From positions 1 to 21,616 of the IMG/VR virus record IMGVR_UViG_2541047867_000011: a stretch of DNA of 21,616 nucleotides. One strand, given 5' to 3'. Made by a program: the position numbers. Of this stretch, positions 1 through 6,000 are shown piece after piece (the stretch's first letter is position 1; each line of letters opens with the position of its first letter). The DNA comes from a virus (lineage: Duplodnaviria; Heunggongvirae; Uroviricota; Caudoviricetes).

Positions 1-3000
1 TTAACTTACTGATTTTAATAAGCCTCTGGTGTCACTTTGGTGACTATGGGGCATCATTGGGACATAATCTGTCAGCTTCTGATTCAGCATTGCGATCTGT
101 TCTGCATTGCTGTCAGTCATCCATGCTCCGTATACATTGAATACCATCTGGGCACTTGCATGGCCCATCTGGCTGGCAATGAAGCTTGGGTTTGCTCCGG
201 CAGATAATGACCAGCACGCATAAGTGTGTCGTGACTGGTATGCCTTTCGATGCCTGATCCCTGCACGCTTAATGGCTGTTTCCCATGAGTCACCTACAGA
301 ATCGACTTTGTAGACAAAACCTACCTGTTCGCTTTTTCTAACCACTTGAGGGTTAAACACGAAAGTACATTCATGGTTCACTGAACGTCCATATTCACGT
401 AGTTGCACCTTGATGTTGTACTGCTTACCCAGTCTTGTCATTTCAGCCTGATTTTTCAGGACACTGATAGCGGGCTGGATAAGGTGCACAACCCTGTTTG
501 TGCTTGCTTCAGTTTTCGGTAGAGTGAACTCACCAAGTTTCGTATAATTGCGCCTGATGGTAATTGTTCCTGCCTTCAGATCGATATCTTCCCAGGCCAG
601 GGAGACCAGTTCACCGTGACGCATTCCTGTGTACACAGCCAATGACCACAGGTTTTTCGTCTGCTGATGTCGGCAAGCATCTATCAGGCGAATAAATTCG
701 TCACGAGTTAGCGGATCTGGCTCTGCCCTGGCTCTTTTAAGAGGCTTAATTCCCTGGAAGGGATTTGCTTCTAAGTAACCGTGATCTGCAGCAAACTGAA
801 ACATTCCAGCGATTGTCGTCATGTAATAATTTACAGTAACGACGCTCCGTCCTTTTGCTGCTGCTTTGTTTTTCGTTGAATTCTGATACCCGGTAAGCAA
901 ATCTTTCCTGATATACAGCAATTCCTCTTTGGTTACCGATGACACCAGTCTACTGCCTCCAATTTTCGGAACCATCGTTCTTGCAACGGATTCATAGCGA
1001 TTGAATGCATTTGCAGAGATTTCCATTCGTTTCAGATCCAGCCACTTTTCTTCAAGTTCCTTCACCGTAATTTCTTTTTTACTTACCCCAAAAGCCTGAA
1101 GGTTGGGGGAGTCAGGGAACTGTGCAGCATAATCAAAGCTTCCTGTGCGGATGGCAAAACATACTGATGTCCGCAGTTCCCCGGCGATCTTCCTGTTCTT
1201 GGCAGTGTCAGGGACACCAAGATTTTCCCTGACACGTTTACCTTTAAAATTAAACCAGATGCGTAATGTGCCGCCGTGGTTTTCGACGCCTGTTGGATAT
1301 TTGACTTTATCCATCGATACCTCCAGACGCCCAAGAGCGATACGAGCTTACATATTTCATGATATTAAATCACCTGGGTTGTTTGTTTTTCATTGAGGCG
1401 ACCCAGGCATCTATTGCTTTTCTGTTATACATACATTCACTGGAAGGCTTTGGATTACCGTCTGGTGATACGTGAATATACTCTCTTCCAACCATCCAGC
1501 ATTCTTTCCGGGCCCGAAGAATTGTGCCTGGTTTGAGCCCGGTAATTGCGATAAGAACGCTTTCACAAACCCATTCATTGGGAGCCAGTTGAATCACATT
1601 GCCCATGTATTACCTCACACAACACTCAGCCCACGGCAGTGGCAACACACTTCAAACATTCGCTTCACAACTTCACGACAGTAGAAGCCGTCAACATCTC
1701 GCGTCAGGTCATAGCGATTGCCGTAACGCTGGTGGACCCATCGTTCAAATGCTTTATTCATTCTTTACTTCCTTTTTATGGCTCGTAATTTTTTCAGGTG
1801 CTTTTCCTGCTCAGTGTCCGCGAGAATTTTGCGGTACTCCTGGTGGTCAATATGTTCGAACAGGCAGTTTAACTCACCAATGCGTACCCGCCCGGATCGT
1901 CCGTCCATCCGTCGAAAGAACACTGAGTGCTCAGTGATGCGAGTAATCACCACGGGGTATCCGGCTCTGTCCGTGTATATCTGACCGCGTTGAATCAAAG
2001 CGAACATGTGGTTATCCCCAGCGGCAAATCGAATACACCACCAGCGCCACCGCCATCGCAATTCCTACCGTTGTTAATGCTTCAGGCCAGGTCATCGTAA
2101 AATATCCTCCACGCTTATCAGTCCGTTCCGCTCCAGATAACTCATCGCCTTATCCGGTAATTTGCAGTCTGGCTTCGCTTTCCTCAGTTGCCAGGTTAAC
2201 TGCTTTACCAGCATGGTTAACTCATCGACCAGACGCTGATATCCCACTGGTTTGTATTCATGCAATTTACCGGCTGGCTCTGCTACCAGCGATACCAGTG
2301 CGATTTCCAGAACAGCAATATCCATCTTATATGTGCGGATGATGTCATGGTCGATTGTGCCCGGTATGCACAGTCTCTGTGCTTCAATAGTCTCCTCTGC
2401 GTGAGCTATTAACTGCTCTCTGGTAAAAGTCGTCATGCCGTAGCCCCTTCTTGATATTTTTCAAACCAGAACACAACCGGCTCTGCTTCCAGCGATACCA
2501 GCGCAATCCGTGCCAGTTCCATTTGTTCACCACGGGTAAGCCCGTTTTCAAGCGGATTTTTAATGAACAATTCAATACGTTCTTTGGTAATAGTGGTCAT
2601 GTGTTACTCCTTAACCCGCAGTGCTTTCAACTGATGAGGGGAACAAAATCTTTTCATCAAACCCTGCATTCATATCATGGACAGCAACACACCAATCCAT
2701 TGACGAACGATTATCAAGAGCCTCCATGATTTCATCCATGCGGCGCAGGTCATACAGGTAAATGCTTTTATCGCCAATGGTGTAAAAACCAATTTTTTTC
2801 GGTGATGGGCAGCGATCAAGAACGTCCTGTAATTCGTTCAACCATGCCCGTTCTTTTTTTGTTAAAGTTGCCATATCACTCTCCTTTCCCATGAAGCATA
2901 GCGGCGCGGCAGGCGTTCCAGCCTGTAGCGTATGCAGCCGCTTTGCTGCTGCCTTCAACTGGCGCATCCTGCCAATACATTTCATCCGGCACTACCGGCG

Positions 3001-6000
3001 CTGGCAAGGCAGCGTGATAGTAGAGTGGCATAGTTTTGTACAGTGGTTCGCCAGGACTTCCGTCAACCTGATTCCATTCTTCAACCCAGGCATCAACAAC
3101 CGCTTTGCTGGTTGATACATGTTCTTCTGAATCTACATTTTGTCCTGATATACAGAACATAACTGCCTCTGCTTCCAGCGATGCCAGAGCAATTCGTGCC
3201 AGTTCCATTTGTTCGCCACGAGTAAGTCCGTTATCAAGCGGATTTTTAATGAATAATTTGATACGTTCTTTGGTTATAGCGTTCATCTCACTCTCCTTTG
3301 ATGCGAATGCCAGTAGCGCGGATTGCATCGATGACTTCAGAAACTTTGTATGCCATTACCGTTTGGTAATCATCGTGAAAATCTGTTCGATGAAGCATGC
3401 TGCTACGTTCCGGGAGCGATATTTCCCGAGCATCCAGTTCCTTAACGCGCTCCTCCAGTTCGTAGACCCTGCATTGTTCTCTATCATCAATCAGATATAA
3501 CCCAAGACATTCGCTTTCTACCCAACCGCCAAAATCATGATCGTAACGCTCACATGAAAACTCACCGTCACCGTCCTTTGTTGGAATGGTGTAACTATCT
3601 AATGGGCCACCATATGTCGGCACATTTCCCAATGTTGGATGCTCAATCCACATGAAAAATGCACGTCCGGTTATTGGGCAAATATCTGGCCGCCATTGGT
3701 TACGAACAGCCTTGGTTTCGGATAATTCTTCAGCGTGTTGTTTTACTTCCTCAAGCTCAACTCTCAGCTTCCCAACCGTAAGAGCAATATCCTCGTTCTT
3801 CTGGTCGCGGCGTTTGATGTATTGCTGGTTTCTTTCCAGCTCATCCAGCAGCGCCAAGACGGTAGCCGGATTGGCTGCAGCGATGAATTCAGCATTGGCC
3901 TGCTGTTCCATTTGGAAATCTTCATCGAAACCGCTTTCAGGATGCGCTCCTTCAATTCTGCAAATGGGAATATATCCAGCAGCCTCGCGATGAATTAGCG
4001 CATCATCACCATCAAATCGGCCCGATCCATATTCGAGCGACCACTCACCACACGTTGCTTTCTCTGCCTTTTCACGCAGTGCCTGATAGTCAATCTTGCT
4101 CACTGGTTGCCTCCTTTGCCGGGATTTCTAACTTTTGAGTGGTTGTATCAAATTCAAACAACTTAACCACGTCATCAAACAGGACATAATCACCATCAGG
4201 ATCTTCAGTCATATCTGCGCCACAATCCTGACCGCACGAGTCGCAACCATCCATATCAAGCTCGTATCGCTTCAGGTTTGCGATATTTGATAAATTCAGC
4301 GCCAGTACAGCCAGGTCATAAACCTCTTCGGCAGTGACATCGCTGTTCAGTCCCATTTCATGGCGATATATGATTTTTTCTACTCGTTGTTTTGTGATCG
4401 TCATTTTTCTCTTCACTCCGATATACAAGGATTACCACACCCCCTCTGCTGATTGCGCGAGCTGGATCCCCTGGTTCCATGCCGTCAATTCCGAAGGCTT
4501 CGGAAAACGCATTCATTGCCTTCTGGCGTTCATCCTGCTTACGGCGTTTATTCCATTTTTTCAGGAACAACAGCGACAGCCACCGTCCGCTGCAGAACAC
4601 GATGTAAAAATAACCAAGGAGCGCCAGGCCGACATTCAGGGCCGTTTCTATGGTTAGTTGTGAGTCAGTTGCCATTTCTTACCTGTTTAAGTAACTGGTT
4701 GAACATAACACTTAGGGGATTGCTGTATCCAAACGGCAGATTGTTTACGCAGTACAGAATCATTTTGTTTTTTTCTCCAGTTCGTACTATTAACCCATTC
4801 CACAATAACCGTGATAATTCATTACTGATAGAAGTTGCGCTTCTTCCAAGTGCGAGGGATATATCTTCTCTACTGCAATCTGGATTTTCCTGGATATACT
4901 CGATAACGGTCATGTGGTCCCTTTTACTTAATATCTGTTTCGGATTGCATGCCATGAGTATTCATTTCGTTAATAATTTCATCCAGAAGGATTTCAAGCC
5001 CTTCTCGACCCATATCTGAAAGAATGAAACCTTTATCAGGGGAAGTAGTGAGCATTTTCTGATAAAGAAACAGCGCTCTTCCCATTCCTTCAGCTTCGCC
5101 GTATTTTTGAATTAAATTCCATTCAATATACTGTTGTAAGGCAAATCGAATGGGGCCGGGATATATAGTCATAAACCCATACATCCCGTTATATACCACG
5201 GCGTGTTCAGTTGTTCCGTGTTCATTCAGGATATCAATTGTGCCGTTCTTGTCTTCTTCTTCGTTGATGAATGTCGTCACATACAACCATCGCCACTGAG
5301 CAACCTTCATCTCAACCGGAAGTTTACCCAGTAATCCTGCTTCGTCGGCTTGCGCCAGACACTGAAGGATACGTAAACCTCGCACATTAGGAGTATCGAA
5401 TTCTCCGGCATCCAGACGACGTATGGCGTCGTGATAATCAATCGTCATACTGCCAGTTCGTATACCATTGGCTGTTGCTTCAGCCTGGAATTCATCGTAT
5501 TGCATGATATTTATTCCTCATCTTCATCTTCATCTGCTGGTGCAATAACGTCATATCCTGCCTTTTCTGCAATAAACAGGAATGTTGAAAGAGTTCCTGC
5601 AAGTTCATCGTCATGAACATGGCGAATGAATATTACTTTCCCGTTTTTGATGGTCAGCAATACTCTGGTTTGTTCGTGTTCTGCTGTTTTCTGATGCATT
5701 ATTATCTCCCGTATGCTTTACGCAGAAATAAGCAGGCAATATGCATGTAATTTTCACCGTATTGTGCAATAAGGCAGGCGGTCTTGTGTGATGCCATATT
5801 CTTTATAAAAGTCACAATAAAGCCTCCTGTGGATTAAGGTTGTAACAATCCCCGGCGATAAAACCGCAATAAACGTTCAGGGCATATTTGTTGTTATTGC
5901 GCTAATTCTTTTTCGGCAGCAGCTTTTGTATACTCACATGCAAAACTCAGAATTTCGCTGCCGAGTGTTTTCGTTTCGTGATTACTGGACATATGTAATA

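Follow-up and report, generated by a model that had tools for sequence, protein, structure and literature searches.

An EaA-type N-terminal head shared by adjacent early genes of an Escherichia coli lambdoid prophage

Paralogous gene starts in the accessory block

The DNA analyzed here, a stretch of 21,616 nucleotides (positions 1 to 21,616 of IMG/VR record IMGVR_UViG_2541047867_000011; the window in the following means this whole stretch), is the left part of a lambdoid prophage of Escherichia coli. Along its minus strand lie int, xis, a DUF4222 gene, four genes named A, B, C and D here, an Ea22-like gene and a gene named E. Genes A to E form the leftward accessory block (the 'ea' or exo-xis region) between the immunity region and xis/int, and the block layout in the annotated records of P22 and HK620 is the same. 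We followed up an earlier note on a DNA repeat in this block. Judged by homology, the repeat encodes the N-terminal segment of about 42 residues, the head in the following, of EaA of phage P22 and HkaE of phage HK620. The genes and repeats concerned are these (aa, amino acids; SD, Shine-Dalgarno):

2092..2436, minus strand: gene A, 114 aa, a divergent long head (residues 1-54, 2275-2436) and the body AGKLHEYKP...ISVEDILR
2276..2304, minus strand: hinge repeat in A, one partner of a putative 203-bp deletion in the sibling prophage L086
2433..2600, minus strand: gene B, 55 aa, a canonical head (residues 1-42) and a 13-aa tail
2467..2612, minus strand: repeat copy 1, the SD region and codons 1-44 of gene B, a canonical EaA-type head
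2479..2507, minus strand: hinge repeat in B (..IALVSLEAEP), the other partner of the putative 203-bp deletion
2611..2874, minus strand: gene C, 87 aa, phrog_1714, without the head, between the two large repeats
2876..3286, minus strand: gene D, 136 aa, a canonical head, a variable insert, the helical module PVVP...GWNACRAAML and a K/RGE-type end
3153..3298, minus strand: repeat copy 2, the SD region and codons 1-44 of gene D, a canonical EaA-type head
3165..3193, minus strand: hinge repeat in D (..IALASLEAEA), from the repeat search

Comparison of the region with itself recovered a significant repeat. The repeat search of the window gave a direct repeat of 146 nt at 86% identity (2467-2612 versus 3153-3298), and blastn aligned 2467-2600 with 3153-3286 at 88.1% over 134 nt (170 bits, E-value 2e-44), while the highest non-self match among 50 shuffled versions of the window scored 42.8 bits. 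The earlier note had placed the repeat at 2470-2600 and 3155-3286, and the two N-termini it quoted are exactly the translations of these segments. Its description of the DNA as near-identical was a slight overstatement, as the B and D copies differ by 16 mismatches in 134 nt.

The N-termini of B and D were 84% identical over 44 residues, and the homology ended sharply at about codon 45. Over codons 4-40 the two genes differed by 8 synonymous and 3 conservative non-synonymous changes, which gave proportions of differing synonymous (pS) and non-synonymous (pN) sites of 0.30 and 0.036, respectively, and a pN/pS of 0.12. Since the copies differ at 30% of their synonymous sites, a recent tandem duplication of the two heads was ruled out, and the low ratio shows that they are under constraint.

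The earlier note had further proposed that a paralogous module stands on several genes of the early left region, one copy being a stand-alone protein and another being fused to a different C-terminal part, and this was found for B and D, respectively. In gene A the note had seen a shared ALVSLxAEP motif. The motif is indeed shared, but the extent was set too small, as residues 1-54 of A align end to end with the head (BLASTP of B against A: E-value 4e-6, 35% identity, with a 13-residue insertion). Comparison by hhalign of the canonical-head profile with the A-type head profile gave a probability of 96.2% (E-value 2.6e-9). At the DNA level the similarity of A and B was confined to a 29-nt block (2276-2304 versus 2479-2507; 90%, 40 bits), which taken alone is within the chance range. 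The module begins at residue 1 in A, B and D, and all three belong to the EaA-type head family, A by the profile comparison.

The stop codon of B overlaps the start codon of A (ATGA). We searched for both genes in 86 sequences, comprising the window, 80 IMG/VR loci found with a 5-sequence head alignment as query, and five annotated records. The 55-aa frame is conserved in these relatives, with 44 B-type genes, 43 of which were followed by an A-type gene with the 4-nt overlap. B is annotated as a coding sequence in an identical RefSeq prophage, and its tail was found behind three head variants. The B-A unit stands downstream of C in the window, of Ea22 in another locus (L088) and of an HkaF-like gene in a third (L087); as it recurs in such different contexts, it behaves as a two-gene cassette. 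The overlap suggests that B and A are a translationally coupled pair.

Gene D ends in GKGE and is without a DUF551 domain. A protein of 233 aa (P0214) has the head and body of D and then continues into DUF551, and the short form ending in ..RAAML.GKGE recurs with other inserts (P0130, P0164, P0308), so that D represents a recurrent architecture and not a one-off truncation. The two halves of its body spread separately among E. coli genomes. In genomes 100% identical over the gene, PGAP and RefSeq annotate D as two partial pseudogenes in some and as a single hypothetical protein in others. The RefSeq fragments are labeled as a 'DUF551 domain-containing protein' lacking its C-terminus and a hypothetical protein lacking its C-terminus, although no DUF551 domain is present there; in one such sequence (L001) the pseudogene region is 3845-4237, which corresponds to 2894-3286 of the window.

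Gene C, which has no head, starts with MATLTKKER, and the head genes have a similar start and a similar SD. A protein beginning with MATLTKEER and continuing as an A-type head was also observed (P0263). Taken together, the two starts suggest that even the first eight or so codons may act as a junction.

The 1281-bp stretch 2050-3330, which holds these genes, occurs at 100% identity in many complete genomes of E. coli; 129 genomes had at least 80% of it and 2232 of 5426 some part, and the entire block was conserved at 100% in over 100 E. coli genomes.

Identity and spread of the head

The heads of B and D were 86-90% identical to residues 1-42 of HkaE (177 aa), and the head of B was 88% identical to residues 1-42 of P22 EaA (317 aa), as compared by tblastn and with the annotated records; the alignment of D with P22 EaA covered a longer stretch at 60% identity. 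The head is also the N-terminus of many proteins named 'Eaa' or 'DUF550/DUF551 domain-containing', names which refer to the bodies and not to the shared head. The PHROGs that matched it (3323, 60, 660, 5117, and 10451; best E-value 2.4e-18) are all mosaic.

The domain search called for by the earlier note thus identified the module as the EaA/HkaE N-terminus, which matched no Pfam or NCBIfam model. Scans against these two databases assigned no family to A, B, C or D, and no Pfam match was obtained for A, B or D at E-values up to 1. The same three genes were without matches to DUF551 (PF04448), which is confined to longer relatives, among them P0214 and HkaE, to the dATP/dGTP pyrophosphohydrolase family (PF04447, formerly DUF550, MazG-like), and to Ead/Ea22-like PF13935, whose sole matching gene was the neighbor at 3288-4103. 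A sequence search of the PDB with P22 EaA matched the MazG-like middle only (residues 83-172, to the pyrophosphohydrolase MazZ, 7ody) and gave nothing for the head; HkaE ends in DUF551. A PADLOC search for defense systems found nothing, and the likeness to anti-defense or host-takeover proteins drawn in the earlier note is an analogy only.

To assess the spread of the head, all of 1.84 billion cluster representatives (50%-identity clusters) were searched with phmmer. The head was found in 234 clusters at E-values up to 1e-3 and in 160 at up to 1e-10. Among the 150 matches listed, the head started at residue 1 in all but two, where it started at residue 8; head identities ranged from 75 to 98% and protein lengths from 53 to 457 aa. 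As the representatives are less than 50% identical overall, one head stands on very many bodies. Among 246 head-related proteins, the best head match began at residue 1 in 237. Clustering of 184 tails of at least 30 aa gave 85 groups at a coverage of at least 70%, and local similarity joined 144 of the tails into a single network. DUF551 was present in 35 and the dATP/dGTP pyrophosphohydrolase domain in 14 of the 124 head-bearing proteins of at least 100 aa, while for most others nothing was found. These comparisons show the head to be a discrete unit whose conservation is at the protein level and with which, from residue 1, hundreds of proteins begin that are otherwise unrelated.

At the protein level the junctions clustered at ..ASLEAEP(V/I). 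Nearly all proteins keep ..IALASLEAEP(V/I) and then diverge; in a minority the break comes a few residues sooner, as after ASLE, where REQIRHEHAKWSD leads into a MazG-like body. About a dozen different heads, the canonical one among them, preceded the body of A in its homologs (e.g., MTTLTDKELIKEIRERIGSLDVRDNIERRAYEIALASLEAEP, MAELTKEQLIEEAKLKIAITKCHPNSGMARIEGELFKIALASLAAES, and MTTITKERLLTIKQWRETYGPGSNVVLPAEEAEELARIAL...); these heads have only their first eight or so residues (MTT[IFL]T[KR]E..) and the ..IALASLEAEP hinge in common. Conversely, some DUF551 bodies and a D-like body carried the A-type head (P0311, P0312, P0308). Heads and bodies therefore both shuffle, and with its variable middle between conserved ends the head, too, is a mosaic.

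A broader hidden Markov model (HMM) of the head detected three genes in the window, D (E-value 5e-24), B (5.6e-28) and A (4e-17), and two to three head-family genes in 48 of the 86 sequences; the 80 IMG/VR loci among these were the best query matches, and copy numbers, pS and the boundary profile given below are thus biased toward close relatives.

Natural fusions with two heads were also observed. In P0247 (167 aa) B is joined to A via a small indel, P0121 and P0134 carry canonical and variant heads in tandem, an A-like unit lies inside the 389-aa P0145, and P0248 is a further member of this group. Some of these fusions may be artefacts of assembly or gene calling.

Head edges, selection and the surrounding window

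An E. coli contig (L086) carries the same prophage at the same site. It was 100% identical to 4500-2479 of the window and 99.7% identical to 2304-1300, with both alignments sharing the 29-nt hinge repeat (2276-2304 / 2479-2507). The contig encodes a 101-aa protein (P0277) in which the head of B is joined in frame to the body of A. On the simplest reading, L086 would have arisen by a 203-bp deletion between the direct hinge repeats of B and A. Modular shuffling by recombination, as suggested in the earlier note, was thus borne out by the head on at least 85 bodies and by an in-frame swap in a sibling prophage. Natural variants show that the hinge repeat works as an in-frame recombination site and that recombination takes place at the conserved head edges. 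A role of the hinge as a Chi site was rejected, as by our own reading of its sequence just 6-7 of 8 positions match Chi.

The exchanges would proceed by homologous recombination between short diverged repeats, as lambdoid Rad52-like recombinases tolerate, and the two 134-nt head copies, which are 12% diverged, would be a plausible recombination substrate too. These recombinases act on sequences diverged by 12% with only about a 100-fold loss, intragenic exchanges of about 100 bp are frequent, and repeats within one phage genome are unusual (De Paepe et al., 2014; PMC3945230). The window and L086 together provide a clean natural example of an in-frame domain swap via a diverged 29-nt repeat, and the pair bears on the origin of phage mosaic joints.

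Selection on the head was estimated from 29 unique head DNAs pooled from the 80 IMG/VR loci and the annotated loci. These gave a pS of 0.205, a pN of 0.018 and a pN/pS of 0.088, over pairs that are not independent. Mean pairwise DNA identity was about 0.43 upstream, 0.59 over the SD and 0.88-0.99 from the ATG to nt 120, and then fell to 0.54 at nt 120-131 and to about 0.31 beyond nt 132. The alignments thus show a conserved DNA block reaching from the ATG to the IALASLEAEP hinge. From this profile and the low pN/pS it follows that the conserved block is exactly the coding head and that the conserved thing is the peptide; as judged by substitution patterns, purifying selection acts on the head peptide.

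The other features adjoining these genes, all on the minus strand, are:

1-1314, minus strand: integrase
1370-1606, minus strand: excisionase (PF06806)
between the excisionase and gene A, minus strand: DUF4222 gene, bracketed by the inverted repeat 1711-1735 / 2038-2062
2872..2887, minus strand: junction of D and C, AAAGGAGAGTGAtATG, the end of D (K-G-E-stop) with the SD and start of C
3288..4103, minus strand: Ead/Ea22-like gene, 271 aa (Pfam PF13935, E-value 2e-32), directly upstream of D
4090..4404, minus strand: gene E, 104 aa, a possible fourth, divergent head (MTITKQRVEKII...DLAVLALN) and a Cys-rich body

Gene E matched PHROGs weakly (phrog_3323, E-value 2.9e-4; phrog_60, 1.6e-3) and was 45% identical over 101 aa to a protein with a canonical head on an E-like Cys-rich body (P0228). 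Its hhalign match to the canonical head was weak (E-value 5.7e-4, probability 30%), and the head HMM did not find it at E-values up to 1e-3. E may carry a fourth, more divergent head.

At two gene boundaries on the minus strand, Ea22/D (3284-3299) and D/C (2872-2887), the junction AAAGGAGAGTGAnATG is repeated with 12 nt the same. The K-G-E-stop codons contain the SD of the next gene; in Ea22 the last codons, ..IKGE, hold the SD for D. This overlap may partly explain the 'common K/RGE terminal motif' of Ea22 proteins (PMC7093339).

Chi sites (GCTGGTGG) were frequent in the window, with 12 in 21.6 kb against 0.67 expected from shuffles, and two of them, 1728-1735(+) and 2038-2045(-), lie within the arms of the inverted repeat 1711-1735 / 2038-2062. 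Farther to the right, the list of open reading frames (ORFs) reads as a putative cI-like repressor, replication genes, RusA, a Q-like gene and a methylase. A C4 antisense RNA, an immunity element of the P1/P7 type, was detected at 8583-8670 (+) (Rfam RF01695, 66.5 bits), inside the region of a 429-aa ORF (7987-9276). Between the Q-like gene and the methylase lies a 265-aa ORF (16135-16932, +), which appears membrane-protein-like on reading its sequence. A cluster of tRNA-Met(cat), tRNA-Arg(tcg) and tRNA-Arg(tct), followed by the small RNA STnc100 (131.8 bits), was found at 18541-19057 (+), downstream of the 349-aa methylase-like ORF (17442-18491) and upstream of a 416-aa ORF (19199-20449).

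Interpretation and related systems

The best explanation of the data as a whole, and in our judgement a probable one, is that an EaA-type head stands on adjacent genes, is selected as a protein and recombines at its edges. The rival explanations, in which the repeat is a DNA linker, debris or an RNA or translation element, were unlikely. A pure DNA-level recombination linker, kept for cassette exchange and encoding a peptide without a role of its own, would fit a conserved block bounded exactly by the cassette edges, the natural recombinants at the hinge, and heads and bodies in many combinations. Synonymous sites nevertheless diverge about 10 times faster than non-synonymous ones (pN/pS 0.09-0.12), the opposite of constraint at the DNA level, and the block begins at the ATG and not in intergenic DNA. 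Divergent head variants also keep a predicted helix-loop-helix pattern despite their different sequences, and we consider the linker improbable.

We give similarly little credence to the repeats being debris of a decaying prophage, with B as a truncated EaA-type gene and D as a chimera of two fragments, both non-functional remnants of a duplication or deletion. The partial pseudogenes of RefSeq, the longer version of D with DUF551 (P0214) and a gene of phage g341c annotated 'Truncated P22 EaA protein' agree with decay. The ORFs of B and D, however, are uninterrupted, each with an SD sequence and in tight coupling with its neighbors, and the divergence of the two copies at synonymous sites speaks against recent duplication. 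The tail of B is conserved behind several head variants and its pairing with A is nearly constant, the architecture of D (head, insert, ...WNACRAAML, K/RGE stop) recurs with other inserts, and the block is fully conserved in many E. coli genomes. That the 5' coding segment is instead a regulatory RNA or translation element, such as an initiation or coupling signal or a target of an antisense RNA or RNA-binding protein, would be in line with the first eight or so codons and SD being alike even in the headless C and Ea22, and with the repeated K/RGE stop-SD-ATG junctions. No Rfam family was found in 2000-3400, though, promoter and terminator matches were at or near the shuffle expectation, and 42 codons conserved with free synonymous change are unlike an RNA structure or antisense target. 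This explanation is highly improbable.

Several points weigh against a protein-selected head with recombining edges. In some genomes PGAP breaks D up into pseudogene fragments, and the case for E as a family member is weak. The polarity of the L086 event, a deletion and not an insertion, comes from parsimony, and no recombinase gene was identified in the window. The non-independent pairs behind pN/pS and the bias of the IMG/VR loci toward close relatives count here as well. The structural models (below) are of low confidence (pLDDT 63-66, pTM 0.29-0.39) and describe the hairpin as a topology and not as a validated fold. With Foldseek, no PDB entry matched the A model at an E-value under 1.2, and in the library searched for EaA, DUF550/DUF551 and the exo-xis region there was no paper on a function of the EaA head.

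In the AlphaFold2 model of D (mean predicted local distance difference test, pLDDT, 62.6; predicted template modeling score, pTM, 0.29), the head has helices at residues 6-14 and 23-38 (pLDDT 66-77), followed by disordered linkers and a confident helix at 113-132 (pLDDT about 85). The model of A (mean pLDDT 66, pTM 0.39) has helices at 6-22 and 30-52 and then three further helices. The heads of A and D are thus both predicted to be helix-loop-helix. With this topology the N-cap and the end of helix 2, both conserved, would lie together at one end by the hinge, and the variable middle would form the tip. Local Foldseek matches to EncB and EscE are generic helical hairpins of about 45 residues and were not counted as evidence.

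One possible role of the EaA-type head is that of a module for protein-protein association or docking, a proposal we make tentatively and with the odds against it. It was suggested by the strong selection on the peptide, by its place at the N-terminus of unrelated bodies, by the hairpin, which is small, amphipathic and probably not stable on its own, and by the translational coupling of B and A. A docking head would give different bodies (MazG-like deoxynucleoside triphosphate pyrophosphohydrolase, DUF551, Cys-rich and others) a common partner, or alternatively would let co-encoded ea proteins associate. A more far-reaching version, which we regard as doubtful, is that the head is a combinatorial interaction handle, that its dozen or more variants, differing only in the middle of the hairpin, are specificity determinants, and that B-type proteins are partners or regulators of A. 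With such a handle the ea proteins would assemble together or dock on a single conserved hub of the host or the phage, and the head edges would be kept partly since they allow in-frame reshuffling of heads and bodies. If true, this would be a small-protein counterpart of polymorphic-toxin or tailspike cassette systems in a phage early region.

The exo-xis or 'ea' region of lambdoid phages, including Shiga toxin (Stx) phages, affects the lysis-lysogeny decision and is largely uncharacterized. Many of its genes share one small head, under strong selection as a protein, that Pfam and NCBIfam do not match and for which precise boundaries are now given. Two kinds of labels are corrected at the same time, 'DUF551 domain-containing protein' for products without DUF551 and the pseudogene calls for D. 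A binding partner of the head, if found, would inform hundreds of orphan phage proteins at once.

Among known systems, Ea22 of lambda and Stx phages combines a constant N-terminal segment and a coiled coil with swappable, unrelated C-terminal domains; one variant carries DUF551, and a K/RGE motif is common at the terminus (PMC7093339, PMC10834534). Experimental data on Ea22 include a tetramer, a pro-lysogenic effect and a solved C-terminal domain (PMC7093339, PMC10834534). Its design is like that of the head genes, it is encoded in the same region and is their neighbor in the window, and D also ends in GKGE. Ea22 is, however, a different sequence family from A, B and D, which have no PF13935 match, and the experiments concern Ea22 and not the EaA head. 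With respect to relaxed recombination (De Paepe et al., 2014; PMC3945230), the repeats of the window (134 nt at 12% and 29 nt at 10% divergence) fall in the reported range; the published exchanges are between phage and prophage, whereas here the repeats lie within one genome.

The likeness to two other systems is one of architecture only, and the head is far smaller, with no evidence for a virion role, a toxin or an immunity partner. P22-like tailspikes and polymorphic toxins (CdiA-CT, Rhs) have a constant N-terminal domain, a short junction motif and swapped C-terminal parts. By analogy, the conserved part may dock on a fixed partner. P22 EaA, HK620 HkaE and 'Eaa' proteins carry the head, residues 1-42, at residue 1 as in the window, and their genes likewise lie between the recombination/Ea22 genes and xis/int. 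They differ in the bodies, which are a MazG-like pyrophosphohydrolase with DUF551 in P22 EaA, DUF551 in HkaE, only the 13-aa tail in B, and other non-Pfam bodies in D and A. The case described here is one of the familiar mosaicism of lambdoid early regions, within the long-known EaA family.

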